This document shows, in pieces, positions 3 through 33,640 of a stretch of 64,000 nt of DNA. Positions within the stretch are counted from its first letter, which is position 1; every line of letters starts with the position of its first letter. Source of the DNA: Spirochaetia bacterium (GTDB lineage: Bacteria; Spirochaetota; Spirochaetia; SZUA-6; Bin103); NCBI GenBank assembly GCA_965203905.1, contig CBDBDQ010000005.1, positions 4,032,001 to 4,096,000 of the forward strand. The letters are read 5' to 3'. The notes under the pieces were generated by a model. The model was not told the DNA's origin and searched no databases. It saw nothing but the letters and a program-made list of their open reading frames with translations. Position numbers and translations under genes: made by a program.

Positions 3-185
3 GGCGACGGGGCCACCGCGTTGCACCTGGCCGCGTTCGACGGCGACGCGGCAGTGGTCGAGAAACTGCTGGCGCGCGGCGCGGACCGCAGCCTGCGCGA
101 CAACGTGTTCGACGGCACGCCCGCCGGCTGGGCCCACGCCGGCGGCCACACCGAGCTTGGCAACCGGCTGGCCAAGCCCCTATGA
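3..185 (+). CDS. Ankyrin-repeat protein, C-terminal part (truncated by window edge)
   Basis: Frame 3 reads GDGATALHLAAFDGDAAVVEKLLARGADRSLRDNVFDGTPAGWAHAGGH...L*, matching the ankyrin consensus (TxLHxA...LL.GAD); TGA at 183-185. Confidence 0.85.
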   Translation, partial: GDGATALHLAAFDGDAAVVEKLLARGADRSLRDNVFDGTPAGWAHAGGHTELGNRLAKPL

Positions 186-479
186 ATCGTCGCTCAGCCT
201 TGAGGGCATGTCCATACGATCATGGAGGATCCGTACCACCACGATGGCGTTGGGTTCGAGGCGATAGAAGATCCGGTGGCGCCCACTGCTTACGGCGCGA
301 TACTCGGTGGCGGCGAAATCGTACACGCGACCGCTGCGCGGATGCCGAACCACGCGTTCGACGGCTGCGCGCAGTTGTGACAGGTAGTGCTCGGCCTGTG
401 CCAGGCCCCACATCTCCCGGGTGGCATCGTGGATCTGGTCCAGGTCAGCGAGCGCCGCCGGCCGGTAGAGGACTTGCAC
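180..479 (-). CDS. parE: Type II toxin, RelE/ParE family
   Basis: From GTG 479: VQVLYRPAALADLDQIHDATREMWGLAQAEHYL...GRHRIFYR...VVRILHDRMD, typical ParE1 motifs; directly downstream of the antitoxin. Confidence 0.88.
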   Translation of the reverse strand: MQVLYRPAALADLDQIHDATREMWGLAQAEHYLSQLRAAVERVVRHPRSGRVYDFAATEYRAVSSGRHRIFYRLEPNAIVVVRILHDRMDMPSRLSDDS

Positions 480-480
480 C

Positions 481-723
481 TCACCGCGGCCCGGCCCGCT
501 TGCGTGCCAGAAACTCATCCCAATCCAGCGGTATCGCCGGGCCACTCGCTTCGCCCTCCAGCAGTGCGGCCCGCAACGCCCGCTTCCCGGTTTCGGCATC
601 CTCCAGCAGTCGAAGGCCGGCACGCACCACTTCACTTGCGTTGCTGAATCTGCCGTCTTTGATCTGCTCTTCGACGAAACGGCTGAAGTGCTCCCCCAGG
701 GTCACGCTCGTGTTTCTCGCCAT
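481..723 (-). CDS. parD: Type II antitoxin, ParD family (RHH)
   Basis: MARNTSVTLGEHFSRFVEEQIKDGRFSNASEVVRAGLRLLE...LRAALLEGEASG, ParD1-type signature; GGGAG RBS upstream. Confidence 0.92.
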   Translation of the reverse strand: MARNTSVTLGEHFSRFVEEQIKDGRFSNASEVVRAGLRLLEDAETGKRALRAALLEGEASGPAIPLDWDEFLARKRAGPR

Positions 724-773: not shown

Positions 774-2639
774 ATGGACTATCCCATCACGCCGGTCGCG
801 TTCACGGCGGTGACCTTTGACGACGGCTTCTGGCTGCCGCGGCTCACGACCAACCGCGAGGTCACCATCCCCTACGACTTTCGCAAGTGCGAGGAGACCG
901 GCCGCATCGACAACTTCGCCAAGGCGGCGGGCCTCATGGCGGGCCCCCACGAGGGAATCTTCTTCAACGACTCCGACGTGTTCAAAGTGGTCGAGGGAGC
1001 AGCCGGCTCACTGAGCCTCCACCCCGACCCCGAGCTCGACGCCTACCTCGACGACCTCATCGCCAAGATCGCCGGCGCCCAGGAGGAGGACGGCTACCTC
1101 TACACCGCGCGCACCATCGACCCCGCCCGGATGGACCCCGGACGGGAGGGGCTCACGCGCTGGTCCAACCTGCTGGTCAGCCACGAGCTCTATAACGTCG
1201 GCCACCTGTACGAGGCCGCCGTCGCCCACCACCAGGCCACCGGCAAGCGCTCCCTGCTGGCGGTGGCGATCCGCAACGCGGAGCTGATCGCCGGTGTCTT
1301 CGGGCCCGGCAAGATCCGCGACGTTCCCGGTCACGAGGAGATCGAGATTGGCCTGGTGAAGCTCTACCGCGCGACCGGGGAGCGTCGCTACCTCGATCTC
1401 GCGAAGTTCTTTCTCGACCAGCGCGGCCAGCCCGACCGCGGCAACCTGCAGTCGAACTACGACAACCCCGGCTACAACCAGGACCATCTGCCCGTGACCG
1501 AGCAGCGCGAAGCGGTCGGCCACGCCGTGCGGGCGGGCTACCTGTACAGCGGCATGGCCGACGTCGCCGCGCTCACCGGCGACCGTGCCTACATCGCCGC
1601 GCTCGACGCGCTCTGGACCAGCGTCGTGGCCAGACGCATGTACCTCACCGGCGGCATCGGGTCCCGCCACCACGGCGAAACCTTCGGCGAGGACTACGAG
1701 CTGCCCAACGCCGAAGCTTACGCCGAGACCTGCGCCGCGCTCGCCAACGTCCTGTGGAACCACCGGATGTTCCTGCTGCACGGCGACGGAAAGTACCTCG
1801 ACGTGCTGGAGCGCACCCTCTACAACGGGTTCCTCTCCGGAATCTCGCTATCGGGCGACGCCTTCTTCTACGCCAACCCGCTCGCCTCGGACGGCGAGTG
1901 GCCGTTCAACGTCCGCACCGGCGCCGTGCGCTACCCCTGGTTCGAGTGCTCGTGCTGCCCTACCAACGTGGTGCGGTTGCTGCCGTCGCTGCCGGGCTAC
2001 GCCTACGCCCACCGGGACGGCGACCTGTTCGTCAACCTCTACGTCGCCGGCACCGCCACCGTTCCCGCGGCCGCGGGCGACGTGACCCTCACCCTGGAGA
2101 CCGGCTACCCCTGGTCCGGCGCCGTCAAGCTCACCGTCGACCCGTCGCGGGAGTCCGCGTTCGCACTGCGCCTCCGTATTCCCGGCTGGACCCGCGGCGA
2201 GCCCGTCCCCAGCGACCTCTACCGCTACCTGGACGCTGCCTCCGAGGCGCCCTCCCTGCGGGTGAACGGCATGCCCGCCGACCTGGAACTGGAGCGGGGT
2301 TTCGCGGTCATCCGGCGTCGCTGGCGCCCGGGCGATGCGGTCGAACTGCACCTGCCGATGCCCGTCCGGCGGGTCGTGAGCCACGCGGGCATCGCGGGCA
2401 ATCGCGGCCGCGTCGCGGTCGAGCGCGGGCCGCTGGTCTACTGCGCCGAGGGGGTCGACAACGGCGGCAATGCCCTGGAGCTAACCCTGCCGGACGGCGC
2501 CGCGCTCGCGGCCGGGCACGACCCCGCCCTGCTGGGCGGGGTGACGACGATCCGCGGGGACGGGATCACTCTGATTCCGTACTACGCCTGGTCGCACCGC
2601 GGCGCCGGCGAGATGAACGTCTGGCTCAAGCACAGGTAA
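774..2639 (+). CDS. Glycoside hydrolase family 127 (beta-L-arabinofuranosidase-like, DUF1680)
   Basis: Motifs FNDSDVFK, HELYNVGHLYEAAVAH, GHEEIE, GHAVRA, YAETCA, WFECSCCPTN, IPYYAW. Confidence 0.93.
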   Translation: MDYPITPVAFTAVTFDDGFWLPRLTTNREVTIPYDFRKCEETGRIDNFAKAAGLMAGPHEGIFFNDSDVFKVVEGAAGSLSLHPDPELDAYLDDLIAKIAGAQEEDGYLYTARTIDPARMDPGREGLTRWSNLLVSHELYNVGHLYEAAVAHHQATGKRSLLAVAIRNAELIAGVFGPGKIRDVPGHEEIEIGLVKLYRATGERRYLDLAKFFLDQRGQPDRGNLQSNYDNPGYNQDHLPVTEQREAVGHAVRAGYLYSGMADVAALTGDRAYIAALDALWTSVVARRMYLTGGIGSRHHGETFGEDYELPNAEAYAETCAALANVLWNHRMFLLHGDGKYLDVLERTLYNGFLSGISLSGDAFFYANPLASDGEWPFNVRTGAVRYPWFECSCCPTNVVRLLPSLPGYAYAHRDGDLFVNLYVAGTATVPAAAGDVTLTLETGYPWSGAVKLTVDPSRESAFALRLRIPGWTRGEPVPSDLYRYLDAASEAPSLRVNGMPADLELERGFAVIRRRWRPGDAVELHLPMPVRRVVSHAGIAGNRGRVAVERGPLVYCAEGVDNGGNALELTLPDGAALAAGHDPALLGGVTTIRGDGITLIPYYAWSHRGAGEMNVWLKHR

Positions 2640-2659
2640 CCGGTATCACGCGCACGTAA

Positions 2660-3499
2660 CTATTTGTCCAGGAGACGCTCGTACTCGATATCGGAGGAGC
2701 GCTTGACGCCATGCTGCGCGGCCCATTCCCGGAGCGCCCACGGGTCAAGTATCGTGCTGGGATTCTTGTGCGCGCCGATCAACTGCCGCGCGATCGGGTC
2801 GGTTACCTTTTGCAACAGCCAGTCCGGCTGCACGTCGTAGTCGAGCGGACTGATCCAACCGTAACTGTATCCCATCATCAGACACTTTCTGGGGACGTCA
2901 GTCCGATTGAGCCCTACCCTGTGGAAGGTACGGCTCTCGAAGAGAAACGCATCGCCGGCCTGCAACTCCAGTTCCACGGCGCCATCCGGATCGTTCCGAC
3001 CCTCGGGAATCTGGAGGCGGCGGGTAAGATTGTTGCTTCCCGGAAGCAGTATCGTGTTCCCGCTGAGTGCGCTCGTGTCGGTGAGCTGATAGGCAATCTT
3101 GATCAGCATGCGCGGATAGCGGTGGGGCCCGAGGTCGAACGGGCTCTCCATGAAATCCCGGTGCCAGTTGGTCGACGGGCTGGCGTCGGGAGGGTCCGGG
3201 TACTTGTAGATGAGGTGCGACTTGGCAAGGCGGATGTCGAAGCTCAGCAGTTGCACCACCAGCGGCACGGTAGTGTCCCACGTAAGCAGGGACAGAAAGA
3301 CGTCATCCTCAGGCAGCACGTTGTCCAGACTGATGCGCCGGGAGTCTTCGTCCCGGTGCTGGCGGGCGATCCTGTCACATGCCGCGGTAACCCGTTGCAC
3401 CATGTCGGCGGGCAACGCCTGACGTACGACCAGGTATCCGTTGCGGTCGAAGAACTCCCGCTGCTCGTCTTCAAGCCGAGTGAATTTCATTCGTTCCAT
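2660..3499 (-). CDS. Phytanoyl-CoA dioxygenase (PhyH) family Fe(II)/2OG oxygenase
   Basis: FFDRNGYLVVRQAL; WHRD (HxD); LPGS; distal His in TFHRVG; start may be ATG 3490. Confidence 0.87.
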   Translation of the reverse strand: MERMKFTRLEDEQREFFDRNGYLVVRQALPADMVQRVTAACDRIARQHRDEDSRRISLDNVLPEDDVFLSLLTWDTTVPLVVQLLSFDIRLAKSHLIYKYPDPPDASPSTNWHRDFMESPFDLGPHRYPRMLIKIAYQLTDTSALSGNTILLPGSNNLTRRLQIPEGRNDPDGAVELELQAGDAFLFESRTFHRVGLNRTDVPRKCLMMGYSYGWISPLDYDVQPDWLLQKVTDPIARQLIGAHKNPSTILDPWALREWAAQHGVKRSSDIEYERLLDK

Positions 3500-3600
3500 T
3501 TGTGCCTCCGAAGGCGTTCGAAGTCAAGCCAGAGCGCACTGAGCACGGCACGGGCCGCAGGTGACAGACGGCCGGTGCAGCCGCTACCCTGTGCAAGCAA

Positions 3601-4674
3601 ATGAAAGCGGCGCTGACGTTCGGACCCGGCGACATACGGGTGGAATCGATGACCGATCCCGTGCCCGATTCCGGAGAGGTCCTCGTCGAGGTGGGCGGCT
3701 GTGGGATCTGTGGCGGCGATTACAGCGGCCACAAGCCGGGCGCGAACCGGTCGGCGAGAGGCCGGGAGCCGACGATCGCGGGACATGAAGTCGCGGGCAC
3801 CGTGGTGGCACGCGGCGCCGGCGTTCAAGGCTTGCCGCTCGGCAGCCGGGTTGCGGTGAGCCCGAATCGTCCCTGCGGACGCTGTCCTCCCTGCCACCGG
3901 GGAATGTCCCACCTGTGTGAGGACCGGATCCCGCACCCACGCCACAAGGGAGGGGGATTCGCCGAACTTACCGCCGTCTTTCCTGAGCAGTGTTACCCGA
4001 TCGACGATGGGACCAGCATGATCGAAGCCGCTGTCACCGAACCGCTCGCCTGCTGCCTGCATTCGACGAGTCGCATCGATGTCCGCCAGGGAGACTGCGT
4101 GGCGATCCTCGGCGGCGGCTTGAACGCACAGTTGTTCCTGCAGTTGACCCGCCTGAAGGGAGCCCGAAGGGTGGTGCTGGTCGACAGCATCGAAGACAGA
4201 TTGCAGGTGGCGTCGCGCCTGGGTGCGGACGAAGTCATCGACTGTTCTGCCATATCGTTCGAGGAAATCGAGTGCCGGTTCGCGCGCGGGGCGGACGTCG
4301 TGATCAACACCCGGGGATCGATGGAATTCACCGAGTTGGCATTCAGACTCTGTGCCATCGGGGCACGTCTCTTGTGCTACGGCGTCGCCCGCGCCGGAGA
4401 TACGGTAGCGGTCGAACCGCACATCATCTGGCGCAAGGAGATTCAGTTGATCGGCGGGCGTTCCTTCAACAATACCTTCGGCGCCGCGGCGGACCTCATC
4501 GACTCGGGGCGGATTCAGGTCGCTCCCTTGGTCACGCGCACCGTGAACCTGGAGCGCTACGCGGAGGTTGTAACCGCTCCGTCCGGCAATCACATCAAGA
4601 CGGTCGTGGTTCCCGATCAGGTGGAGGCGGAGAGTTGCGTCGATTCGGAGGCGGCCAAGCTCCGCCCAGCGTAG
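3601..4674 (+). CDS. Zinc-dependent medium-chain alcohol/sugar dehydrogenase
   Basis: GICGGD, GHE, structural Zn motif CGRCPPC...C, EPLACC, Rossmann-like ILGGG. Confidence 0.9.
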   Translation: MKAALTFGPGDIRVESMTDPVPDSGEVLVEVGGCGICGGDYSGHKPGANRSARGREPTIAGHEVAGTVVARGAGVQGLPLGSRVAVSPNRPCGRCPPCHRGMSHLCEDRIPHPRHKGGGFAELTAVFPEQCYPIDDGTSMIEAAVTEPLACCLHSTSRIDVRQGDCVAILGGGLNAQLFLQLTRLKGARRVVLVDSIEDRLQVASRLGADEVIDCSAISFEEIECRFARGADVVINTRGSMEFTELAFRLCAIGARLLCYGVARAGDTVAVEPHIIWRKEIQLIGGRSFNNTFGAAADLIDSGRIQVAPLVTRTVNLERYAEVVTAPSGNHIKTVVVPDQVEAESCVDSEAAKLRPA

Positions 4675-4699
4675 CGATCCGGCAGCGGGCTACCGGGGC

Positions 4700-5512
4700 T
4701 CATCCTCGCGGCGCGGCGTGCGGCCTCACCCAGTGGCGGTAGAGAGGCTTGACGTCCTCGGGAAGCGCTGCGTAGATCTCCGGCGGCACGGCGGCAACCT
4801 CGTTTTCCGCCAGCCCCGTCGCCTCCAGCATCCGCGCCCGCTCCGGTGACCCGGGCATCAGGATGTCGAGGTTCAACCACCAGGGCGCGTAGCGAACCAC
4901 CAGGCCCACCCGCGCCTCGGTGCTGGTGTTGGGGGTGACGGCGTGCCACAGCCGGCTGTCGCACAGCAGCACGCTGCCGGGTTCTCCGGTAGCGCGGATC
5001 TCTCCGGGATGGGGCCGCCACGGATCGACACCATTGTCGCCGGAAGGATTGTTCGCGGAGCGGTGGCTGCCCGGCACGATGGCGGTGGCTCCGGTCTCGA
5101 TGGAGAACCGAGACAGCATCCAGATCGTGGTCAGGTGGATGACGGCGTCGGGGTAGGGCGCCGGAATGTGGCCGGCGTTGCCCTGGTTGAAGGGCCAGTC
5201 GGCGTGCAGGTTGCCGCGGGTGCAGCCGGGATAGTTGATCTGGCCACTGGTGAATGAGATGCGCACGTGGGGGCCGAACAGCGCCTCGGCTACGCCAAGC
5301 ACCCGGCGGTCGGCGAGATGGCACGCGAAAGATTGCTCGTAGGCGATCAGGCCCTTGCGGTTGCCCACCCGACTCGCCTCGTCGATGGTGCCGTGATGCC
5401 GCACCGCCAACTCGACACGCCGCCGAATGTGGTCCACCTCGTCACCGGGGATGACGCCCTCCAGCACGCAGTAGCCCTGCAGCCGCAGCCGCTCCAGCGC
5501 CGGTTCAGTCAT
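4700..5512 (-). CDS. PhyH family dioxygenase
   Basis: From ATG 5512: LRLQGYCVLEGVI; LHADW; GATAIVPGSH; LWHAVTPN. Confidence 0.88.
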   Translation of the reverse strand: MTEPALERLRLQGYCVLEGVIPGDEVDHIRRRVELAVRHHGTIDEASRVGNRKGLIAYEQSFACHLADRRVLGVAEALFGPHVRISFTSGQINYPGCTRGNLHADWPFNQGNAGHIPAPYPDAVIHLTTIWMLSRFSIETGATAIVPGSHRSANNPSGDNGVDPWRPHPGEIRATGEPGSVLLCDSRLWHAVTPNTSTEARVGLVVRYAPWWLNLDILMPGSPERARMLEATGLAENEVAAVPPEIYAALPEDVKPLYRHWVRPHAAPRG

Positions 5513-5528
5513 GGTTCGTGCCTTCCGC

Positions 5529-6665
5529 TCAGCGCTCGAAGCGCGGCTGGCGCGGGACAGAGTGGCGCTCCAGGCGCAGGTCGCTGCCATCTAGCGGCAG
5601 CCGCACGCGGGCGCCGCCGCGGCGGTGCGACTCGATGCAGGCGAAGATCAGCTCCGTGTTGGCGCGTGCGATGCGGACCCCGCCGCGTGGCGGCTGACCG
5701 GTATCCAGCGCGTGCACCAGGTCCATGATCAGGTTGACGGTAGAACTGCTGCGGGTGAACGGAGGGAAGCTGCCGTGGCGCAGAGTGGGGTGTCCGCGAT
5801 GGTTCACTCCGCCCGGCTCGCGCAGCAGAAATTCGTTGTCCGTCCCCACGGAGCTGATCACCGCCTGCTCGCACACCACCTCGACCTCGAACCGACGGCC
5901 GCTGTCGCAGGCGAACGCGACCACGCCGTTGGCGAACTGCAGGCGCCCGCCGCCGCTCGGATCGCTGTCGAGCAGACCACCGGCAAGCTCGTCGCCGCCC
6001 TGCGCCAGGTGGAACTGCACCCACTCCACCGGCTGGTCGTTGTTGAGCCACAGCAACAGGTCGAAACCATGGCTGCCCATGTTGAACAGGCCGTGCTCCT
6101 GGTGAACCGTCATCGACCGCAGGGTGCCGTACCGGCCGCCGTGGATCAGTTCCTTCATGGCGTCGTAGGGGGTGTCCCAGCGCCGGTTGGTGCCCATGTT
6201 GAAGGCCACGGCGTGGCGCTCCACCGCCGCCACCATGGCGTCCGCCTGCGCGAGTGAAGCGGCCATCGCCTTCTCCGCGTAGATCGCGCGCGCACCATGC
6301 TCGGCGGCATAGATCACGATCTCGGCGCGCTGCTCCGGCTGCGTGGCCACGCTCACGATCTCCGGCCGCTCGCGCGCCAGCATCTCGCGGTAGTCGCGGT
6401 AGCGGTGCGCCGGCGCTACGCGGTAACGCTCGCCGGCGTGCTCCATCACCTCGGCGCGTGGGTCGGACAGTGCCACCAGCTCGGTGCGCGGGCACGCCAG
6501 GTAACCGGCGGCGTGGGAGTAGGCGTGCGGCGAGGCGACCTCGTTGTCGATGAAAGCGCCCATGCGCCCGCAGCCGATCAGGGCGGCCCGATAGCGGCGT
6601 GGCGCTTGCGCACCTGGCGTGTCCGAACCGGCGCGGGCACCGGTCCGGTAACGGTAACTGGTCAT
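5529..6665 (-). CDS. Gfo/Idh/MocA family oxidoreductase
   Basis: ALIGCGRMG Rossmann motif, IYAEKAMA, MGSHGFD. Confidence 0.9.
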   Translation of the reverse strand: MTSYRYRTGARAGSDTPGAQAPRRYRAALIGCGRMGAFIDNEVASPHAYSHAAGYLACPRTELVALSDPRAEVMEHAGERYRVAPAHRYRDYREMLARERPEIVSVATQPEQRAEIVIYAAEHGARAIYAEKAMAASLAQADAMVAAVERHAVAFNMGTNRRWDTPYDAMKELIHGGRYGTLRSMTVHQEHGLFNMGSHGFDLLLWLNNDQPVEWVQFHLAQGGDELAGGLLDSDPSGGGRLQFANGVVAFACDSGRRFEVEVVCEQAVISSVGTDNEFLLREPGGVNHRGHPTLRHGSFPPFTRSSSTVNLIMDLVHALDTGQPPRGGVRIARANTELIFACIESHRRGGARVRLPLDGSDLRLERHSVPRQPRFER

Positions 6666-6733
6666 TGTGACTCTCCCCCTGACCGTAACGCGTTGTTGAC
6701 GATGACGCCACTGCCACGGCGTAATTCGGTGAC

Positions 6734-7813
6734 GTGAAAAGATACCGCGTGGGCATCGTGGGGCTGGGGCGGATGGGCAGCACCATCGACGACGAGGGGC
6801 ACACCGACCAGCCGTACTCCATCGCCGCGTCTTGTTCGGCCAGCGTGCGTCTCGAGCTCGTGGCCGGTGCCGACCCGCTGGAGGAACGAAGAGAAGCGTT
6901 CGGGGAGCGCTGGGGGGTGCCCGCGCTGTACGCCGACTACCGGCGGATGGTGGCCCGGGAGACGCCCGACCTGGTGGCCGTCTGCACTACCGCTTCCGGG
7001 CTGCCGAAGCCGGCGTCAGAGGCGCCGGACGCGGAGTTTCGTCGCGATTCGCACGCCGAGTTGACGGTGGCGCTGGCGGCGGCGGGCATCCCGATGCTGT
7101 ACGTGGAGAAGGCGATGGCCAGCTCGGCGCGGATGGCGGACGCCGCGCGCGCCGCCTGCGAGCGCCACGGCACGATGTTCAACACCGGCGTGCTGCGCCG
7201 CTTCGACAACCGTTATCGTGCGGTACGGGAAGCGATAGCCGCCGGCGCGATCGGGTCGCCGCTTGCCGCGATCCACTTTGCCGCCACCAACCTGATGCAC
7301 GGCCACGTACATTCCATCGATACCCTCTCCTACCTGCTCGGCGACCCGCCCATCGAGGCGGTGCGCGGCGAATTGATCCCGCGCGAGATGCGGATCGCCG
7401 GCGACCACCTGCCGCGCGACCCCGACGCCACCTTCCGGCTCCGTTTCGCCGGCGGTGTGGAGGCGTGGTCAGTGCCGGCAGGAGGTTGGGAGTTCGAGGT
7501 CCTCGGCACCGAGGGCAGCATCCGCTCCCTCAACAACGGGGCCGGAGTGACCCTGCGCCGGACCGCCGGCGCCCGGCGGCGCCCGGCGTGGAGCGAGAAG
7601 CCGTTCGCGTTGCCGGAGCCGGTCAGCCCGGTGGTCGCCTGCCTGGAGGATCTGGTCGCGGCCCATGAGTCGGGCCGGCCCACGCTCAGTCCCGTGGACC
7701 GGAGTGCCCACGTCGTCGAGGCCTGCCTCGCCGTGGCCGAGAGCCACCGCCGCGGCGGCGCCTGGGTGGAACTGCCGCTGGCGCAACGCGACCTCTACAT
7801 CTTCCACGTGTGA
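6734..7813 (+). CDS. Gfo/Idh/MocA family oxidoreductase
   Basis: VGIVGLGRMG, LYVEKAMA, HGHVHSID, FEVLGTEGSI. Confidence 0.9.
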   Translation: MKRYRVGIVGLGRMGSTIDDEGHTDQPYSIAASCSASVRLELVAGADPLEERREAFGERWGVPALYADYRRMVARETPDLVAVCTTASGLPKPASEAPDAEFRRDSHAELTVALAAAGIPMLYVEKAMASSARMADAARAACERHGTMFNTGVLRRFDNRYRAVREAIAAGAIGSPLAAIHFAATNLMHGHVHSIDTLSYLLGDPPIEAVRGELIPREMRIAGDHLPRDPDATFRLRFAGGVEAWSVPAGGWEFEVLGTEGSIRSLNNGAGVTLRRTAGARRRPAWSEKPFALPEPVSPVVACLEDLVAAHESGRPTLSPVDRSAHVVEACLAVAESHRRGGAWVELPLAQRDLYIFHV

Positions 7814-7882
7814 GCGGGCACGCACGCTCCGCGCCACGGGAGTCCATGCCAAACGACGCCCGCGACGGTCCGCTCGCCAGCG

Positions 7883-8875
7883 CTACGGAGTGCTGCTTGC
7901 CGCCGCGCTCGGGTTCAGTTCGCCGATGAGTTGCTCGCGGGAGATCAGTTCCACCGCCGGCGTGTCGAAGCGGCCGTAGCCGTTCCACACCTTCAGGCCG
8001 ACCAGCTCCTTGAGGCGCAGCGGCGCCGCGGCCAGCACTTCCGGCAGCAGGCCGAGGGTGTAGTTCTCCTGCGGTCGGAACTGGGGGCCGCAGTAGGTGT
8101 TGAGCAGGCCCATTCGCGGCTCGTCGGTGCGGTTGGTGCCGGAGCCGTGCCACAGCCGGCCTTCGAAGAACATCGCGCTGCCGGCCGGGGCCTCGATCGC
8201 CACCAGGTCCTCGTCGCGGTACAGCTCCGGCTTCGGCTGGCGGCCGCTCAGGTGGCTGCCCGGCACGACCCGGGTGGCGCCATTGGCGGCGTGGAAGTCC
8301 ACCAGCAGCCACATGCTGTTGACGCAGGCCGGCGGCGCTATCATGGCGGCCGCGTCGCCGACCTCGCCCGCCTCTGCGCGGCTGATCGATCCCACCGGCA
8401 GCCCGAACTTCCCCTTGGGCACCGGCGGCGGCATCCACCAGGCGTCCGTGTGCAGCTCCATGGGAGCGGCGCCCTTGCCAATGATGTTGGCGGTGCTGCA
8501 GGAGAGCTGGTAGTGCTCGCCGAGCACGTGCCCGACCAGCTCCAGGGCCTCCTCCATGAGCACGAGGTCGTGGAAGATCCGGCCCTTGTTGAGCAGCATG
8601 AAGAGGCGCTGGCTCACGCCTCCGGCGGTGACGGAGAATCCCGTCTCGCGCACTTTGCCGGCGGCGTCCGTGAACGCGCCCCAGCGCTGGTCCGGAGCGC
8701 CGTCCATGTAGGCCACGCCGCGCTCACGCTCGGCGGCGCCCTGGGCGGCGAGCCGCTCCCGCGCCTCCCGCAGCGCAGCCGGCGTCAGCGCGTCCGCCAG
8801 CAGGCAGTAGCCGCAGCGCTCCAGGTCCGCCTTGCAGCGCTCCAGATCGGTGGTGAGTCGGGGCAGCTCGGTCAC
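7883..8875 (-). CDS. PhyH family dioxygenase
   Basis: From GTG 8875: DLERCGYCLL; LHTD; NGATRVVPGSH; LWHGSGTN; FRPQENY; TATACT 6 nt upstream of the start. Confidence 0.88.
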   Translation of the reverse strand: MTELPRLTTDLERCKADLERCGYCLLADALTPAALREARERLAAQGAAERERGVAYMDGAPDQRWGAFTDAAGKVRETGFSVTAGGVSQRLFMLLNKGRIFHDLVLMEEALELVGHVLGEHYQLSCSTANIIGKGAAPMELHTDAWWMPPPVPKGKFGLPVGSISRAEAGEVGDAAAMIAPPACVNSMWLLVDFHAANGATRVVPGSHLSGRQPKPELYRDEDLVAIEAPAGSAMFFEGRLWHGSGTNRTDEPRMGLLNTYCGPQFRPQENYTLGLLPEVLAAAPLRLKELVGLKVWNGYGRFDTPAVELISREQLIGELNPSAAASSTP

Positions 8876-9054
8876 GGCGGCAGTATAGCCCGGCGACCGA
8901 ACCGCGAGAACAGCTGCCGTCCCGACCGTCCTGACCGATACATCCATGAGCCCATCAACTGACAGCCGCACCGCAGCGACCGGGACCATCGCTGCCGTCC
9001 GGCCCACGTCGGGATACTCTCCATCCCGTACGCCGGCGCCCGTGCTGGCGCTGG

Positions 9055-9546
9055 TCAGAACTGGTAGACGAGCGGCGGGTCGGCGGCGGGCGCCGGGTAG
9101 AAGAGAAGCAGGACGGTGCCGGAGTGCTGGCCGTAGGCTGCCCGGTAGCGCTCCCTGATCGGCGCGAGATCGAAGCGGAGCTGCCGGGTTGGATAGGCTT
9201 CGCAGGGGTCCTCGTTGGCGTCATGGGTGAGCACCACAGGCAGTTGGACGGGGGAAGACTCGCGGAAGGATTCGGCCGCGGTCAGGACGAACACGTGGCT
9301 GCGACAGCCGCCGCTGTAGGAAACCGAGACGGTGAGGATGTGGCCGCTCACCGCGGCGCCATTCAGGGTGAACGGATCGGTGTGCCGATCGGCAGTGGGG
9401 CCGAAGAGTACCGGCACCAGGGGCTCGGGCCGGGTCGGAGGCACCTCGTCGCGACCGATCGAAACAGGAGCGGCGGCGGCGCGGCAACCGGCCGCGAGGC
9501 AGGCGGCCGCCACCAGCAGCGCGAGGTAAGAGAGAAGTCGCTTCAT
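9055..9546 (-). CDS. Lipoprotein, NigD-like C-terminal domain
   Basis: Signal peptide with lipobox (MKRLLSYLALLVAAACLAAGC); VSYSGGC..H.F and LTHDANEDPCEA...LRFDL resemble NigD-type beta-sandwich proteins. Confidence 0.65.
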   Translation of the reverse strand: MKRLLSYLALLVAAACLAAGCRAAAAPVSIGRDEVPPTRPEPLVPVLFGPTADRHTDPFTLNGAAVSGHILTVSVSYSGGCRSHVFVLTAAESFRESSPVQLPVVLTHDANEDPCEAYPTRQLRFDLAPIRERYRAAYGQHSGTVLLLFYPAPAADPPLVYQF

Positions 9547-9806
9547 GCTACGCACCCCACCGATTGTGTCTCCCGGCCCCCCGGCCGGCCGGCCCAGCCG
9601 GCTCCACCCCATTCGCCAGTAATGATACCATACGGCCTGACCTGCTTGGCGCGGTCCCTCGCCTACCGGATCGTAGCCAGGGCTGGCCGTACGCAGCCGG
9701 ATACCGTCCCACTCGGCGATGCCGCGGCGGTCGAAGGAGAGGCGCCGTCATCGCCCCGCGATGCCGGTGCGTACGCCCGGCGGTAGTCCCAGCGGCAGCG
9801 GGCAAT

Positions 9807-11914
9807 GCTGCGCGACAAGCCGGCTGCAAAATCGTTGCTCCCGCTACCCTCGACCGACACCCGACCGCCCAACTCTCACCCCGCCGAGCGCCGATCACAT
9901 GGCCCCGTCTGGCGGCGGCCCGTCCTCCCGATGCCGGAAGCGGTGGTGAGCAGAACAACGAAGCCTGAGATTACCCGGCTCAGCACTGCCGCCGAGCGCG
10001 AAGGGAACGATGTGGTCGAGTTCCAGCAGGAAGCGGGAGCCGCAGCGCCGCCCGCTATGCGGATCGACGAAACTGCAGCAGCCGCCGTCGCGGCGCCACA
10101 CCTCGCGCCGCACTGGTGCCGGAATGTACCGGGATCGACGCGCCCGGTGGGACGGCTGCGCGCTGCCTGCGGACGGGCCGGCTGGCGCCGCCTGCGTGCG
10201 CGAACGGCCATCGAGCGGCGCTCCTGCCCGCGTTGCCGCCCCTGCCCGCTTCGCTGGCGAAGGAGCGTGGCGACCGCGGTCCACCGCTGCCCGCGCGGTC
10301 GGCATGCTCTGGTCTGCCGGCGGCGTCGGTACGGGGGCGCGGGACCCGCAACCAGCCACCAACTTCGCCGCCGAAGGAGTGGTGCCGGGCGCCGCCAGCG
10401 CTGGCTTTGCACGCACCGGGGAGCTGCCCCTGCAAGTCTCGCGCCCCGCCGGCGGCGCGGACAGCGCTGCCACCGCCGAGGTGCCGGCGCCGCCAATCCC
10501 GCGCGCGGGTTCCGCTACGGACAGCGCTGCCGGCGCCGGGGTGCTGCCACCGGCGCTCGTGCCCTCCGACGGCGTCGCCACTCCGGGTTGCTCTTGCGCG
10601 CCCGACTTCGCTGGCGAAGTCGCCCCGCCTGCCGGCCCTTGCTGCGCCTTCGGCTCCGGCGCCTGGCCCGCGCTTGCCTCCCGGCGCCCACCTCTGCGCC
10701 CGCGCGGCGGCCGCCCCGGGTCGTAGCGCTGCAGGCCGTCCTGCACCAGCCGCTCCACGAGCTGCCCGACCGTCAGGTGCGGGTCCACGTGCGACAGCAG
10801 TGCCCGTAGCTGCTCGATCCCGCACTGACACGCGGCGTCGATCACCACCTTCAGCTCCCAGCGGCCGTCGCCCAGCGCGCGCATGCGATCGGCCGGCCGC
10901 GCCAGCTTGGGAGCCACCCCGGCCAACAACTGCTTCACCTCGCGGGTGCTCTTGCCGCTCGCCTGCTCCACCAGCTCCTGCCGCTGCGCCGCGTCCAGCG
11001 CCGGCACCGGTCGCGCTGGCGCCGCTGCCGCGGCCCCCGAAGCCCCCGCCTCCAGCGCCGTCCCCGTGCCGGCCGGCAGCAGCTCCGGTGCCGCGGATGC
11101 CGAGCCGGGGTCCGTGGCGGCGGTCGCCGTGCGCTGCAGGAGATCGAAGGTGTTCTGCAACTGCGCCGCCGCGCTCAGGGAGAGCGAGCCGTCCTGCAGC
11201 CGCTCGCGTGTCCCGGCGGTATCGGAGCACAGGCGCATGGCTTTGATACGGCGCCAGGCGGCACCCTCGCTATAGCCCAGCTCGCGCACGGCGTAGTCGA
11301 ACAGGCTGGAGAACCCGAGGCGCAGATGGAGGTGGCGTGCGTGGATCTCGCGCAGGTGGTCGAGGACGGCGAGCTGCAGCGCCTGCTCGTGCAGGACGAG
11401 GGACCTGGTGTGCGCCAGCAGCACTTGGTCGGGGAGCCCGGAGAGCGAGGAGGAGAAGCTGGTGGCGGTCGCGGAATCCACGGAATCCATGGCGTAAATA
11501 TAAGCATGGCTGAGAAATGACGGGTTTCGGTGAGTCCCGGACCGGCATCGGGAAGGGCTCAGGCCGGCGCTGGTGGGGTGCTGGAGGGCCTGGAAGGCCA
11601 GGCGGGATGTTCGCAGGGTCGGAAGGGCCGGAACGTGCGGCAGGAGGCCGTCACGAGCAGCGCCAAACCCGTCAAGTGCTCAGCGCATTTTTTGGGCACC
11701 TTTTCTGCTGAATCCTGCACCGCGGCGCCGACATGCCCAGCAACGCATCGGCGGAGACCGGCGCGTTGCTGGTGGCGGCTATCCCCTCTTTTCTGGACAC
11801 GTCGTACAGCGAACGAGCCACACACCCAGAAGGCGGCGATCTGGCAGGCGCCGCGCCGGGGCCATCACCGCAGCTCGCCCACGCACGGAATGCAGACGTC
11901 ATTCAGCATGGGAT
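9807..11914 (-). mobile_element. Dispersed HNH-encoding repeat element, copy 1 (putative selfish element)
   Basis: Colinear similarity to 31277-33345 starting at GCTGCGCGACAAGCCGGCTGCAA and ending near TTCAGCATGGGAT; flanks unrelated. Confidence 0.7.
9895..11490 (-). CDS. HNH endonuclease with DUF222-like N-terminal domain (copy 1)
   Basis: N-term LREIHARHLHLRLGFSSLFDYAVRELGYSEGAAWRRIKAMRL; C-term RYIPAPVRREVWRRDGGCC...RCGSRFLLELDHIVPFALGG...NLRLRCSAHH. Confidence 0.88.
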   Translation of the reverse strand: MDSVDSATATSFSSSLSGLPDQVLLAHTRSLVLHEQALQLAVLDHLREIHARHLHLRLGFSSLFDYAVRELGYSEGAAWRRIKAMRLCSDTAGTRERLQDGSLSLSAAAQLQNTFDLLQRTATAATDPGSASAAPELLPAGTGTALEAGASGAAAAAPARPVPALDAAQRQELVEQASGKSTREVKQLLAGVAPKLARPADRMRALGDGRWELKVVIDAACQCGIEQLRALLSHVDPHLTVGQLVERLVQDGLQRYDPGRPPRGRRGGRREASAGQAPEPKAQQGPAGGATSPAKSGAQEQPGVATPSEGTSAGGSTPAPAALSVAEPARGIGGAGTSAVAALSAPPAGRETCRGSSPVRAKPALAAPGTTPSAAKLVAGCGSRAPVPTPPADQSMPTARAAVDRGRHAPSPAKRAGAATRAGAPLDGRSRTQAAPAGPSAGSAQPSHRARRSRYIPAPVRREVWRRDGGCCSFVDPHSGRRCGSRFLLELDHIVPFALGGSAEPGNLRLRCSAHHRFRHREDGPPPDGAM

Positions 11915-12066
11915 CGCCTTGGTCCGCCCGCACGCGACCCACACCCGGCACGCAGCGCAGGCGCCGGCGTGCTGCCGGCAGACGTGTCTGCGGCATGTGT
12001 GCCACACTCCGCGTCGGTGTTGCGACACGGCGAGGCGATGCCCGCTGCCAATACCACCCGCTCCTC

Positions 12067-14091
12067 ATGGCGACAGCATTGGATTCTCGTCTTGGCCGCC
12101 TCCGGACGCCGTCTCGGGCCGCGCCTCGCCTTGCGAAGTGGGCCCCGGCAAGCCTGGTGGGGATTGCGCTGGTGCTGCTCGGTGCCTGCGCCAGCAGCGC
12201 CGCCGTGGTGCGCGACGGCGCCGATCGGCCGTTCCTGATCGTCGACGCGAGACAGCCGACCCCGGTCGGAGGCGCGGGGCTTCAGCTCCGGTTTTCGGTG
12301 CGCATGTCGGACGGCACGGATCCTCCGGAGCTGGGGTCGGAAGAGATCGCGGTGATGAACGACGAGGCGGGCCACGACTTGGGCGCCGGCGGGGAGGATG
12401 GGAGCCGGTCGGCGCCGCGGCTTCCCGCCGACCTCGCACTGCTGACGGTGCTGGTCCTCGATTTCTCCGACTCGGTGTTCAAGGAAGAGCTCCCGGATCA
12501 CATCCGCAGAGGAGTGGACGGCTATCTGCAGGCGCTGCTGGTGCAGTCGGACGGTGACAGCGCCGAGCTGACGACGGTAAAGGGGAATCATCGGCTCGCC
12601 CTGGTGCAGCTCGGTCGCACCCGGGAGGTCAGGACAGCCCTCGATTTCACCGCCGATCCGGCGGAGGTCGAGCAGGCCGTGGCGGCGCTGGCGGCTGCGG
12701 GCGGACTCGGTACTACCAACCTGTATGCCGGCTACGGCGCCGGGATCGATGCCGTGACGGGCGAGGAAGTGGCGTCACCGTCGGTGCAGCGCGTCGTGAT
12801 CCTGGTCACCGACGGCGCCCACCGGGCCGGGAATACGGAGCAGTTGAGGGCTCAGGCGCTGGACCTGCGGGAGCGGACCGAGAGCGCCGTGTTCACTGTC
12901 GGTGTCGGCGACGGTGAGCACCTGCAACCGGTGCGGGAGCTTGCCTCGCAGCCGCGGTTCTTCCGCGCGACCGACGCCGAGGGAGTGGCGCGGGCGTTTC
13001 AGGAGATTGCCTCCGACATCGTCCGCCTGGCACGCAGCCACTACGTGGTGGGGATCTGCACGCCGGTCGAGCTGGGCAGCCCGACGCTGACGCTCCGGGT
13101 CACCGCGGGCGAACTGTCCGCGGCGCACACCGTGGTCTACGCCACCGACATGCTGGACGGCAACACGACCGACTGCGATCCCGACCAGGTGGCCGCCGCG
13201 TACGCCGGCGCCGATGCCGGCTCCGGCGCCACCCCGCCAGCGCAGGTCGAGCTGCTGCCGGCGCCGGGCGCGGACGCCGAGGAAGCCCGGCCGCAGCTCG
13301 CGGAGGAGGAGCGTCGGCCCCCGGGCAGCCGGTTCCGGGACTGCACCGAGTGTCCGGAGATGGTGGTGGTGCCCGCGGGCAGCTTCCTGATGGGCTCGCC
13401 GCAAACGGAACCGGGGCGGGAGGCCGACGAAGGGCCGCGCCATCGCGTGTGGCTGCCGCGGGCCTTCGCCGTGGGCGTGTACGAGGTGACGTTCGCCGAG
13501 TGGGATGCGTGCCTGCGCGCCGGGGGTTGTGACTGGTATCCGCAGGATGAGGACTGGGGACGCGGCAGGCGTCCGGTCATCAACGTGAGTTGGCAGGATG
13601 CGCAGCAGTACGTGGCGTGGCTGAGCAGCCGCACCGGCGAGCGGTACCGGTTGTTGAGCGAGGCGGAATGGGAGTACGCGGCGCGCGCGGGAACGACGAC
13701 TCCGTTTCACACGGGACCGACGATCTCCCCGGAGCTGGCCAACTACAATGGAGAGCTCACCTACGCAGGTGGCGCCAGCGGCATCTACCATCGCCGGACG
13801 CTGCCGGTAGGATCGTATCCCGCGAACGAGTTCGGGCTGCACGACGTGCACGGCAACGTGTGGGAGTGGGTAGAAGATTGCTGGCACGGAGACTACGACG
13901 GTGCGCCGAACGACGGCAGTGCCCGGGGAGATGCCCGCGCCAGGGCCCGCTGCAACTGGCGGGTGGTACGCGGCGGCGCCTGGTTCTACGATCCGCGGCT
14001 GCTGCGCTCCGCGTACCGGAGCTGGAACTTCGCCGGCAACCGATCGAGCGAGTTCGGCGGCTTCCGGGTGGCCCGGACGCTGGGCCCTTGA
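12067..14091 (+). CDS. Lipoprotein with vWA domain fused to a formylglycine-generating-enzyme (SUMF1/FGE-sulfatase) domain
   Basis: Lipobox LLGAC; MIDAS-like LVLDFSDS, TNLY, ILVTDG; C-term FRDCTECPEMVVVPAGSFLMGS, RLLSEAEWEYAARAG, GLHDVHGNVWEW, GFRVAR. Confidence 0.85.
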   Translation: MATALDSRLGRLRTPSRAAPRLAKWAPASLVGIALVLLGACASSAAVVRDGADRPFLIVDARQPTPVGGAGLQLRFSVRMSDGTDPPELGSEEIAVMNDEAGHDLGAGGEDGSRSAPRLPADLALLTVLVLDFSDSVFKEELPDHIRRGVDGYLQALLVQSDGDSAELTTVKGNHRLALVQLGRTREVRTALDFTADPAEVEQAVAALAAAGGLGTTNLYAGYGAGIDAVTGEEVASPSVQRVVILVTDGAHRAGNTEQLRAQALDLRERTESAVFTVGVGDGEHLQPVRELASQPRFFRATDAEGVARAFQEIASDIVRLARSHYVVGICTPVELGSPTLTLRVTAGELSAAHTVVYATDMLDGNTTDCDPDQVAAAYAGADAGSGATPPAQVELLPAPGADAEEARPQLAEEERRPPGSRFRDCTECPEMVVVPAGSFLMGSPQTEPGREADEGPRHRVWLPRAFAVGVYEVTFAEWDACLRAGGCDWYPQDEDWGRGRRPVINVSWQDAQQYVAWLSSRTGERYRLLSEAEWEYAARAGTTTPFHTGPTISPELANYNGELTYAGGASGIYHRRTLPVGSYPANEFGLHDVHGNVWEWVEDCWHGDYDGAPNDGSARGDARARARCNWRVVRGGAWFYDPRLLRSAYRSWNFAGNRSSEFGGFRVARTLGP

Positions 14092-14113
14092 CCTGCTACC
14101 ATGGCGCCCAACC

Positions 14114-14968
14114 ATGGCCGATTCAGCTCGCTGGCACGTACGTGCCGAGAACGATTGCCTGTTCGTCGACGACGCCGAGCAGGGCGGGGTGGTCCTGCAG
14201 CACAACGCGCGCACCGGGGTGGGGGCGTACATTCACCCGTTGCGCCTGGACGGCGCCTGCCTGACCGCGGACAGCCCCTGGCACCACCCGCACCAGCACG
14301 GCATTCAGACCCGCTTCGTGGGGATCGACGGCAGCGATTTCTGGCACTACCCCGGGCAGCGGCCGGGCCAGACGCTGGGCCGGATCAACCCCGCCCCGCC
14401 ACGGGTGGCCGGCACGGCACCGCCGCGCTGGACCATCGAGGCGCTGTGGCAGCACGCCGACGGCCGGCAGGTGCTGGCCGAGCGCCAGGAGTGGACGTTG
14501 CGCGACGCGGATGGACTCCTGCTGCTGGACCTGGACTGGACCCTGCGGGCGATCCCGGCGCTCACCTTCGCGCCCTACCCCTATGGCGGCCTCTACGTGC
14601 GCATGCCGTTCCACTTCCACCTCGGCGCCTCGGTGGTCACCTCCACCGGCCACCGCGACGGCGCCGCCGAGCAGCAGGCCGCCACCTGGGTGGACCTGCA
14701 GATGCCGCTGGAGCACGGTGGCTGCCGCAAGGGCGACGAGCCGATCAGCGCCGGCATCGCGGTGTGCGACCATCCCGCCAACCCCGGCCACCCCGCCTGC
14801 TGGCGCGTCGACGGTTTCTACGGCATCAATCCGGCGCCGACCATCGCCGGCCCCATCGAGCTGGCCGCCGGTGCGGCCCTGCGCCTGCGCTACCGCCTGA
14901 TCGCGCATCGAGGACCACTGGCGGCGGCGCGGATCGAGGAGCTGTGGGCCGACCACGCGGCACCGTAG
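14114..14968 (+). CDS. DUF6807 ('PmoA-like') family protein
   Basis: YIHPL, HHPHQHGI, DFW, YGGLYVRMP, DHPANPGHPACWRVDG, LRYRLIAHRG. Confidence 0.7.
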   Translation: MADSARWHVRAENDCLFVDDAEQGGVVLQHNARTGVGAYIHPLRLDGACLTADSPWHHPHQHGIQTRFVGIDGSDFWHYPGQRPGQTLGRINPAPPRVAGTAPPRWTIEALWQHADGRQVLAERQEWTLRDADGLLLLDLDWTLRAIPALTFAPYPYGGLYVRMPFHFHLGASVVTSTGHRDGAAEQQAATWVDLQMPLEHGGCRKGDEPISAGIAVCDHPANPGHPACWRVDGFYGINPAPTIAGPIELAAGAALRLRYRLIAHRGPLAAARIEELWADHAAP

Positions 14969-14989
14969 ACAAAGCGCGGCGGTAGCAAG

Positions 14990-15775
14990 GTGGACTTCGA
15001 TCCGTCCATCATTCCCACGCAGCTCAATCCCGACCTCAGCCCCGCGCTGGCGCAGGAGGTGAGCTTCTTCCGCAAGTGGGGCTACCTGGTGGTGGACGCT
15101 GCCCTGACCGTGGCCCAGGTGGAGACCCTGCGCGCCGCGCTGGACGAGACCGCGGCGCGCCTGCCGGCGCGCGATCCCTCAGGCCGCCGCGTCGCGCCCG
15201 GCAAGGGCCAGTTCTACCACCAGCTCCTGGAGGCGGACGAGCGCTTCGTGTTCCTGCTCGACCATGCCCCGGTGCTGACCCGCATCAAGGCACTGCTCGG
15301 CACCTGCGTGCAACTGCACAGCGCCACCGCGCGGGTCACCCGGCCGGGCGCCCCCGACCAGGACTGGCACCGCGACGGCCCCTGGCCGGTCGACCCCGAC
15401 GGCACGCCGATCGGCAGCACGCCGGCGCAGATCAACTGTGGCTACTATCTCGACCGCCTGACCCCCGACAACGGCCCGATCGCCATCGTGCCGGGCAGCC
15501 ATCGCGCTCCCTTCAAGCCGCCGCAGGGACATCCCGAGTTTCCGGACCAGGTCATGGTGCTGGCGCGCCCCGGCCAGGCGGTGCTGTTCAACGGCTGGCT
15601 CTACCACCGCGGAGTGGCGAACCGCTCCGAGCGGCCGCGCCGGGCCTGCATGATGTGCTACCAGAACGCCTGGATGAAGTCGTTCGAGCCGTTCGACGGG
15701 CCGCGCGTCACCCGGCTGCGGGAGCACGGCACGCCGGAGCAGAGACTGCTGCTCGGCGGCGTCCCGCGCTGGTAG
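14990..15775 (+). CDS. PhyH family dioxygenase
   Basis: FFRKWGYLVV; WHRDG; NGPIAIVPGSH; LYHRGVAN. Confidence 0.88.
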   Translation: MDFDPSIIPTQLNPDLSPALAQEVSFFRKWGYLVVDAALTVAQVETLRAALDETAARLPARDPSGRRVAPGKGQFYHQLLEADERFVFLLDHAPVLTRIKALLGTCVQLHSATARVTRPGAPDQDWHRDGPWPVDPDGTPIGSTPAQINCGYYLDRLTPDNGPIAIVPGSHRAPFKPPQGHPEFPDQVMVLARPGQAVLFNGWLYHRGVANRSERPRRACMMCYQNAWMKSFEPFDGPRVTRLREHGTPEQRLLLGGVPRW

Positions 15776-31206: not shown

Positions 31207-31276
31207 GAAAGGGATCGCAGAGATGATAATGAAGCGCAACGGTCGCGACAAGGGCCGGGGGGCAGGACTCTCCTAC

Positions 31277-33345: not shown

Positions 33346-33404
33346 GGTCCTGGGTACGGTACGGGGTGGTACGTGCGGGCTCGGCGGCCGGGGCGTCCGG
33401 GGCG

Positions 33405-33433: not shown

Positions 33434-33449
33434 GAGCGGGCTGCCAACT

Positions 33450-33523
33450 GGGGGCGTGGCGAAGGTGGTTATCGCGCCGGCCTGTCAAGCCGGAGGCCGC
33501 GGGTTCAAGTCCCGTCGCTCCCG
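33450..33523 (+). tRNA. tRNA-Asp (anticodon GTC)
   Basis: Acceptor GGGGGCG/CGCTCCC, anticodon arm CCGGC-CTGTCAA-GCCGG, T-loop GGTTCAAGTCC; CCA not encoded. Confidence 0.95.
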
Positions 33524-33558
33524 TCCAGTTATCAGGTTCTCCGTTCGTCAAAGATCTA

Positions 33559-33631: not shown

Positions 33632-33640
33632 CAGGTGTTT

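Follow-up and report, generated by a model that had tools for sequence, protein, structure and literature searches.

A high-copy family of stand-alone HNH nuclease-gene cassettes in Spirochaetia genomes, transitively linked to DUF222/13E12

A stretch of 64,000 nucleotides from a Spirochaetia bacterium (assembly GCA_965203905.1, contig CBDBDQ010000005.1, positions 4,032,001 to 4,096,000; the whole stretch is called the window below) contains two diverged copies of a unit of about 2.1 kb whose only gene encodes a protein with a C-terminal HNH nuclease domain. Sequence comparison shows that the two repeats belong to an old cassette family of high copy number, in which a nuclease gene stands alone; each cassette is made up of a 5' module, one open reading frame (ORF) and a short 3' tail. 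The cassette is of a kind already known but unexplained, the 13E12 repeats, in a new and divergent spirochaete form. The explanation that we favour, tentatively and with a probability of roughly 0.45, is that of a selfish, protein-guided nuclease cassette of the DUF222/13E12 type that spread long ago as DNA and is now partly kept by selection.

The repeat pair and its conserved unit

When a 4108-nt query (window positions 8807-12914) was compared to the window with blastn, the sole non-self match joined positions 9807-11926 (copy A, 2120 bp) to positions 31277-33358 (copy B, 2082 bp), at 89.276% identity over 2126 columns, with both units on the minus strand. In a pairwise alignment, the similarity between the copies ends abruptly on both sides, with 17 of 50 columns matching outside the gene-5' boundary and 20 of 39 ungapped columns outside the gene-3' boundary, which agrees with the claim of an earlier note on this DNA that two colinear copies of about 2.1 kb lie in unrelated flanks. 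The same note had pointed to a sharp shared left boundary, and a conserved boundary string is indeed present at 9807 in copy A and at 31277 in copy B; read in the direction of the gene, it marks the 3' end of the unit. Conservation was measured to reach 88 nt past the stop codon and 436 nt ahead of the start codon, close to the first estimates of about 90 bp and 420 bp. Both pairs of neighbours are divergently oriented, as had been described: copy A lies between an ORF at 9055-9612 (-) and a vWA/FGE-sulfatase ORF (+), and copy B lies between a SurA/PpiC-like ORF at 29659-31251 (-) and a tRNA-Asp gene at 33449 (+), its 3' tail stopping upstream of the TTG start of the former ORF, at a distance of 26 nt.

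The non-coding parts of the unit differ in how they evolve. The 5' module, which spans about 215 nt (11491-11705 in copy A and 32928-33141 in copy B, both on the minus strand, 90.2% identical), carries a -10-like box just before the ATG, conserved blocks and A-tracts at its outer edge. Between positions -215 and -46 relative to the gene, the p-distance between the window copies is 0.088 with 0 gaps, and the module can be aligned with 11 loci of six other metagenome-assembled genomes (MAGs), giving 13 sequences from seven MAGs in all with a mean column identity of 70%. The 88-nt 3' tail (9807-9894 in copy A, where it has a sharp end, and 31277-31364 in copy B, where similarity ends at 31277; both on the minus strand) aligns between the copies with 78 matching, 9 mismatched and 2 gapped columns, a p-distance of 0.10, and no further copy of it was found in the window or in the related loci. 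The far-upstream segment from -436 to -216 (11706-11926 in copy A and 33145-33358 in copy B, also on the minus strand) is common to the two window copies only, at 82.4% identity; its p-distance is 0.168 with 9 gap columns, which falls within the synonymous divergence of the ORF (0.11 to 0.33), and it has no match in any related locus. Coding potential of this segment was rejected, with no frame open in both copies. The segment probably evolves neutrally, as a hitch-hiking remnant or passenger.

Because the segment from -436 to -216 appears neutral and is unmatched elsewhere, while the module can be aligned across MAGs, the family-level unit is limited to the 5' module of about 215 nt, the ORF and the 88-nt tail. 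Of the non-coding DNA that the earlier note took to move with the unit, only the module and the tail thus belong to the family unit, and not all that the two copies share is functional. No solo remnants of the ends or of the 5' module were found elsewhere in the window.

A search of the ends of the window copies, in which the 25 longest inverted pairs were shown for each copy, found no terminal inverted repeat (TIR) or flanking duplication linking the two ends, and a short-word comparison of the upstream with the downstream windows of the copies found no recurrent match and no direct terminal repeats. According to Pfam, the unit's ORF carries the HNH domain only and encodes no DDE, HUH, serine or tyrosine transposase, and 0 of the window's 39 other ORFs scanned has a transposase, recombinase or reverse transcriptase domain.

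The 5' module was also examined as a potential source of RNA, since the earlier note had raised the idea of a programmable nuclease. With RNAalifold, the 13 aligned modules gave a consensus structure of -4.1 kcal/mol with 12 pairs and a covariation term of -1.19 on the sense strand, and of -4.7 kcal/mol with 16 pairs and a covariation term of +0.53 on the antisense strand. The window module alone folds better than its shuffles (z = -3.74, with 0 of 200 shuffles as good), a result to which covariation gives no backing, and a search of the whole window with Rfam at the gathering cut-off returned 3 tRNAs only and no RNA family at the module. The subfamilies holding most of the related loci described below are without the module and have instead a TTGACT-17-TATACT promoter ending 6 nt before the ATG. 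In the module of the window copy, a -10-like box can be seen by eye 7 nt before the ATG, and the promoter tool found no sigma-70 consensus promoter there. We conclude from these comparisons that the module is a promoter-proximal or regulatory region rather than a guide-RNA scaffold, and the term programmable is not supported. Terminator-like hairpins followed by a T-run (window 11676-11699 (+) and L032:3808-3823 (-), where L-numbers designate related loci) were rejected as a conserved feature; they are placed antisense to the HNH gene where the module has its A-rich outer margin, occupy differing alignment positions and occur at about the rate expected by chance.

The HNH protein and its DUF222/13E12 relatives

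The protein of copy A (ORF A, 9895-11490 (-), 531 aa) consists of a helical N-terminal domain, a linker, an alpha/beta middle domain, a long disordered linker and a zinc-finger HNH domain, and the protein of copy B (ORF B, 31365-32927 (-), 520 aa) likewise has its HNH residues intact. The HNH nuclease domain of copy A is encoded at 9898-10125 (-), corresponding to residues ~456-531, with the Pfam family PF01844 matching residues 482-521. This is the only Pfam match in the window proteins, with E values of 2.3e-4 (A) and 6e-5 (B), just above the cut-off. An alignment of 48 family sequences shows no variation at C472, C483, H493, N507, C512 and H515, and conservation of at least 90% at D492. The intact HNH domain flanked by Cys and His that the earlier note described is confirmed. 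The N-terminal helical domain (~10-130) and the middle domain (~160-260) are encoded at 10711-11463 (-) and together form the presumed DNA-recognition part.

An AF2 model of ORF A was built on the 48-sequence alignment. Its predicted local distance difference test score (pLDDT) exceeds 90 at residues ~20-125 (helical), 165-260 (alpha/beta) and 455-525 (HNH) and falls below 50 at linker residues 135-152 and 282-437, and a separate model of residues 1-265 reached a mean pLDDT of 86.5. Foldseek comparison of the full-length and 1-265 models to the PDB returned 0 matches at E<=1e-3. Among the matches with E > 1e-3, those of the HNH part were to the Gme HNH nickase, McrA, Cap5 and colicin DNases, and the top matches of the N-terminal part, weak ones with a probability of at most 0.69, were to the DNA-binding domains of ParB, Noc and SopB. 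Profile matches to PDB sequences were confined to the HNH domain and comprise the ZRANB3 HNH, the group II intron maturase En, Cap5, the Cas9/IscB HNH and McrA. The N-terminal and middle domains are thus predicted to be folded parts of no solved fold.

Divergence between the two window copies was partitioned along the protein. The ratio of nonsynonymous to synonymous divergence (dN/dS) comes to 0.03 for the N-terminal, 0.15 for the middle and 0.28 for the HNH domain, and to ~1 for the linkers; the folded domains evolve under purifying selection. On the basis of these ratios in the folded domains and of the invariant catalytic and zinc residues, the protein appears to be functional. Neither window protein matches a PADLOC family at E<=1e-3, and a defence annotation was rejected.

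The relationship to DUF222 is an indirect one. The DUF222 profile, PF02720, does not match either window protein at E<=0.01, nor their N-terminal 230 aa at E<=10. It does match the equivalent N-terminal region in 12 of 48 phmmer relatives at E<=0.01, two of which (P0236 and P0267) lie above its gathering score, and the relatives bearing PF02720 were themselves found from the window protein at E values of ~1e-45 to 1e-57. Moreover, a language-model look-up placed the N-terminal 265 aa beside an Atlas cluster named DUF222, with a score of 0.94. Since PF02720 matches 12 of the 48 relatives but not the window proteins, membership in DUF222 is supported transitively only, with the window proteins as an apparent divergent branch, and in this transitive sense the family would be a spirochaete branch of the DUF222 (13E12-type) HNH superfamily. 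The link to DUF222-HNH repeats that had been suggested is therefore real but transitive only, the window's own N-terminal domain going undetected by PF02720; the profile and structure searches that had been proposed for that domain gave no Pfam match at E<=10 and no PDB match at E<=1e-3, and yielded DUF222 in relatives and the weak ParB/Noc-like matches mentioned above.

The REP13E12/13E12 proteins of mycobacteria and other Actinobacteria, which combine DUF222 with HNH, share with the window family an architecture in which a helical domain at the N-terminus precedes a zinc-finger HNH at the C-terminus, and both are multicopy within a genome, without an associated transposase and of unexplained spread. 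In contrast to REP13E12, the window proteins escape PF02720 and come from a high-GC Spirochaetia MAG, the conserved 5' module of about 215 nt is present in part of the family, and each genome has at least 24 to 35 copies. Length differs as well, the window proteins reaching 520-531 aa through their long disordered Ala/Pro/Gly linkers, whereas many relatives have ~300-350 aa.

A near-palindromic 17-nt motif occurs three times in the part of each gene that encodes the disordered linker (10249-10265, 10363-10379 and 10606-10622 in copy A; 31704-31720, 31818-31834 and 32043-32059 in copy B). It encodes short peptide repeats of a Ser/Pro/Ala-Lys type, and similar ones are present in the linkers of related copies.

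Copies in the window's chromosome and in related genomes

A word-indexed protein search gave 1131 matches at E<=1e-3 among 8000 scored candidates. Among the 120 homologs listed, 23 are encoded on the window's own 7,785,191-bp contig, including P0006, which is identical letter for letter to the protein of copy B, and counting copy A brings the paralogs on this contig to at least 24. Most of these are full length (427-569 aa), and their amino acid identity over 276 pairs ranges from 71.4 to 88.7%, with a median of 82.3%. A further 63 loci were found in eight Spirochaetia/Spirochaetales MAGs, with 35, 9, 7, 4, 3, 3, 1 and 1 loci each; these are species-representative genomes other than the window's own, and the MAG OZ241863.1 holds the 35. 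The two window copies are therefore far from alone, and the high-copy family that the earlier note had guessed at from them does exist. More widely, an exhaustive phmmer search against 1.84 billion cluster representatives gave 15,300 matches at E<=1e-3, of which 7,081 also passed E<=1e-10 and 732 passed E<=1e-30; a length of only 300-350 aa is frequent among these relatives. The HNH gene is the sole part common to all subfamilies.

Some copies have decayed and others have been retained. When the reading frames of 65 copies were tested crudely, ~36 appeared intact, the other ~29 being broken or truncated, a decay that is typical of selfish DNA. Two loci, L001 and L004, share both flanks and are orthologous copies in two species, with a dN/dS of 0.14-0.21 at a dS of 0.5-0.75, and L008 and L011 form a second shared locus with few differences. 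No two paralogs in the window's genome exceed 89% identity, so the expansion is old; after it, to judge from these comparisons, some copies decayed and selection kept others.

Of the 35 loci of OZ241863.1, 31 were taken into an alignment, with L037, L047, L052 and L059 left out. These copies have a sharp 3' end ~125-150 nt past the stop codon, closing in a 13-nt motif, and a direct second copy of this motif lies ~80 nt before the ATG. Across the aligned copies the 3' ends are sharp and the 5' limits variable, and five copies at unrelated sites begin at the internal direct copy of the motif, without a left repeat. Many copies have the end sequence in inverted orientation further upstream, forming an imperfect TIR of ~25 nt. 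The ungapped matches of this TIR number 14-20 of 28, and 5 of 6 copies beat the maximum of 2000 random 28-mers; a search of 65 sequences located the left end in 16 loci and the right one in 18. Duplications flush with the junctions, of 11, 8 and 7 nt, are present in three of the eight two-ended copies, the other five having 3-5 nt, while mismatched controls reach a duplication of at least 7 nt in 2 of 56 cases. The statement that transposase, TIR and target-site duplication (TSD) are lacking is thus correct within the window, and for TIR and TSD it fails in this related lineage. One locus, L006:288-916, is a 630-bp internally deleted derivative resembling a miniature inverted-repeat transposable element (MITE), which has kept both inverted-repeat ends and lost most of the HNH gene.

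In this lineage, the stretch that separates the left repeat from the HNH gene consists of debris of drmMI, a gene for a DISARM methyltransferase. Only L019 has drmMI intact (L019:3-3893), and there it encodes more than 1297 aa, ends just upstream of the HNH copy, matches PADLOC DrmMI with 1280 bits and has Pfam MmeI/Eco57I domains. It is internally deleted in L036 (L036:2047-3885), is also seen at L027:2703-3887, and is cut down to 50-300 codons elsewhere. By eye, the 3'-end sequence of drmMI lies just upstream of the HNH gene in 19 of the 31 aligned copies, with tblastn supporting 8 loci. These remains indicate that in the OZ241863.1 lineage a larger unit bounded by inverted repeats, comprising drmMI and the HNH gene, was copied and that internal deletions later eroded it.

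The window copies showed no recurrent TIR, and neither did the second OZ241907.1 subfamily or OZ251573.1; no candidate transposase was seen among the window ORFs and the few ORFs of L012, L019 and L036 that were scanned. L032 and L043 share a motif of 23-25 nt, with one inverted copy in L032. Two candidate links from the window to the OZ241863.1 lineage were rejected: the 13-nt end motif is absent from the window, where one match with 2 mismatches is at chance level, and the best tblastn match to a drmMI/MmeI-like gene has an E value of 0.43.

Several further observations concern the surroundings of individual copies. L057 (L057:5599-8379), which belongs to another subfamily, adjoins the same right-flank genes as the L001 and L004 copies of two other MAGs, and it has the best TSD, a perfect flanking duplication of 10-11 nt; the coincidence of the right flank could be site preference or chance. 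Flank segments of L002 (OZ241907.1) match, inverted, the flanks of two OZ241863.1 copies (L049 and L055), which suggests possible rearrangements near HNH copies between the two genomes. Upstream of the HNH copy in L012 lie two adjacent ORFs for Uma2, a putative restriction endonuclease (L012:1766-3085 (-) and L012:2904-3827 (-)). In the window, a tRNA-Asp/tRNA-Pro pair at 33449-33632 (+) starts 91 nt past the outer 5' boundary of copy B, the tRNA-Asp itself occupying 33449-33527; tRNA targeting was rejected, as just 3 of 60 related loci scanned have a tRNA within 4 kb. Copy A sits within a cluster (window 774-15775) of four PhyH-type dioxygenase ORFs, two GFO/IDH/MocA oxidoreductases, a zinc alcohol dehydrogenase, a GH127 arabinofuranosidase and a DUF6807 ORF. 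Close to the start of the window, a ParE toxin domain (E 6.9e-18) is encoded by an ORF at 180-635 (-). The G+C content of the window is 69%, and every one of its closest HNH-bearing relatives carries the label Spirochaetia; a 7.79-Mb high-GC contig would be unusually large and high in GC for a spirochaete genome.

How the cassettes may have spread

In the explanation that we favour, the N-terminal and middle domains would read DNA sequence directly, so that recognition would be by protein and not by an RNA guide, and the HNH domain would nick or cut DNA. Multiplication in the past would have taken place as DNA, by way of repair or recombination started by the cassette's own nuclease and completed by the host, as in intronless homing; neighbouring DNA would therefore be copied along with the cassette, and the cassette may at times have been carried inside larger units bounded by TIRs. 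Copies would then have persisted, apparently since an intact nuclease was selected. Neighbouring DNA has in fact been co-copied, as the scraps of drmMI show, and the window segment from -436 to -216 behaves alike, being neutral and carrying indels; both support this explanation.

Free-standing HNH homing endonuclease genes are familiar from the 'intronless homing' of phages, and the cassettes resemble them in consisting of a lone HNH gene with its own promoter, in the co-transfer of flanking DNA with variable limits and in having no transposase. Homing endonucleases, however, occupy one allelic site next to their target, whereas the cassettes are found at dozens of unrelated intergenic sites in one chromosome and, unlike homing endonucleases, stay under selection at fixed loci.

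Several points weigh against a selfish, protein-guided cassette. The TIR and duplications of the OZ241863.1 lineage point to cut or copy and paste of a transposase type. The dN/dS of the syntenic pair L001/L004 indicates selection in place, which is unexpected for a purely selfish copy. With no pair of the 24 paralogs above 88.7% identity, there are no young copies in the window's genome, and no insertion event, empty site or recent copy was seen, including no empty site among the 63 loci. Taken with the ortholog dN/dS of 0.14-0.21, this ceiling on paralog identity fits an ancient expansion better than an active spreader. Finally, we infer DNA binding by the N-terminal domains, whose ParB/Noc-like structure matches are weak, as well as all of the mobility steps, and the favoured explanation and its rivals overlap in part.

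The most probable alternative, though we hold it to be unlikely, is that of a non-autonomous transposon which a transposase encoded elsewhere mobilises in trans, with the HNH gene as a passenger or as a retention aid that cuts emptied donor sites. IscB and TnpB have been proposed as retention aids of this sort, from which the present case would differ in that DNA is read by protein. The OZ241863.1 lineage does look like MITE-like or cargo transposons mobilised in trans, given its imperfect TIR of ~25 nt, above the random maximum in 5 of 6 copies, its duplications of 7-11 nt in three of eight copies against 2 of 56 controls, the 630-bp derivative that retains both ends, the internal deletions and the carried drmMI scraps, with no transposase inside. 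Yet these features were not found in the window copies or the other subfamilies, with no recurrent TIR in the window, the second OZ241907.1 subfamily or OZ251573.1; even within the lineage five of eight copies are without a duplication and five independent copies are without the left repeat. It is the HNH ORF and not the ends that all subfamilies have in common, and no matching transposase was identified among the ORFs scanned.

Distinctly unlikely, in our view, is a host-maintained paralogous family that is no longer mobile, or never was so in the ordinary sense, and that serves in the DNA damage response, recombination or genome plasticity, a type of role already proposed for the 13E12 proteins of mycobacteria. 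The absence of young copies (maximum 88.7% among 24), the full length of most of the 24 paralogs, the syntenic ortholog pair under purifying selection and the second shared locus L008/L011 would all suit such a family, as would the treatment of the 19 DUF222 proteins of Mycobacterium tuberculosis as conserved, SOS-induced inversion drivers (PMC13157036). What argues for mobility instead is that the whole cassette, non-coding ends included, repeats at unrelated intergenic sites, that copy number varies from 1 to 35 among the eight MAGs, that ~29 of 65 copies are broken, and that one lineage has TIR, TSD and MITE-like derivatives; the lack of a PADLOC defence match also counts against such a family.

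Quite improbable would be that the DUF222-HNH protein is the sole mobility enzyme of an undescribed class of autonomous elements, binding the ends, making staggered HNH cuts and inserting by copy and paste, and thus a new type of transposase. Its gene is the only one conserved across all subfamilies, its two folded non-nuclease domains are strongly constrained, the TIRs would imply symmetric recognition of both ends by one protein, and the duplications of 7-11 nt would imply a staggered cut. Against this, HNH enzymes are hydrolytic nucleases and are not known to have strand-transfer activity; most subfamilies, including that of the window, are without TIR, and recent copies are lacking.

Guidance by RNA, with the 5' module encoding a guide scaffold, is very improbable: the conservation of the module beside the nuclease gene in 13 sequences from seven MAGs, the folding of the window module (z = -3.74) and a weak NCBIfam match to the HNH part of IscB speak for it, but the consensus structure is negligible on both strands, Rfam finds nothing at the module, the module is absent from the subfamilies with most of the 63 loci and, lying wholly inside the unit, it cannot take a guide from flanking DNA. 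The match in question, to guided_IscB, reached 15.9 and 19.6 bits where the cut-off is 175, and of the 314 profile positions it spans 183-238 only, the HNH segment; no RuvC domain was found in the window proteins with Pfam. ISC/IscB and TnpB (OMEGA) are described as nuclease genes borne by non-autonomous transposons of the IS200/605 type (PMC4810608). The cassettes resemble them as a multicopy nuclease gene that has no transposase of its own and has conserved non-coding DNA alongside, and the HNH domain of IscB is distantly similar to theirs; unlike IscB and TnpB, the cassettes have no RuvC, conserved structured RNA, IS200/605 ends or TnpA.

In the literature open to full-text search, we found no description of how REP13E12/DUF222/13E12 repeats move, in line with the statement that their spreading mechanism is not established; texts that combine HNH with terminal inverted repeats, target-site duplication and transposase gave none either. 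The sources list REP13E12/HNH/DUF222 among repetitive elements (PMC10589994) or place 13E12 proteins, called SOS-induced, at inversion breakpoints (PMC13157036), while PMC12236494 refers to DUF2225 and not to DUF222; within that searched text, 13E12 genes are described only as repeats or inversion drivers.

The finding offers no new programmable nuclease. Its interest lies in the DUF222/13E12 HNH genes themselves, which, with 15,300 cluster representatives matched at E<=1e-3, rank with the most frequent repeats of bacterial genomes that still lack an explanation. The spirochaete MAGs have 24 to 35 or more diverged copies, clear unit boundaries, a 5' module, co-copied DNA and, in one lineage, TIR and TSD, and the spread and retention of the cassettes are therefore directly testable in them. 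If the HNH protein did prove to be a mobility enzyme, this would explain the spirochaete cassettes together with the long-unexplained 13E12 repeats.

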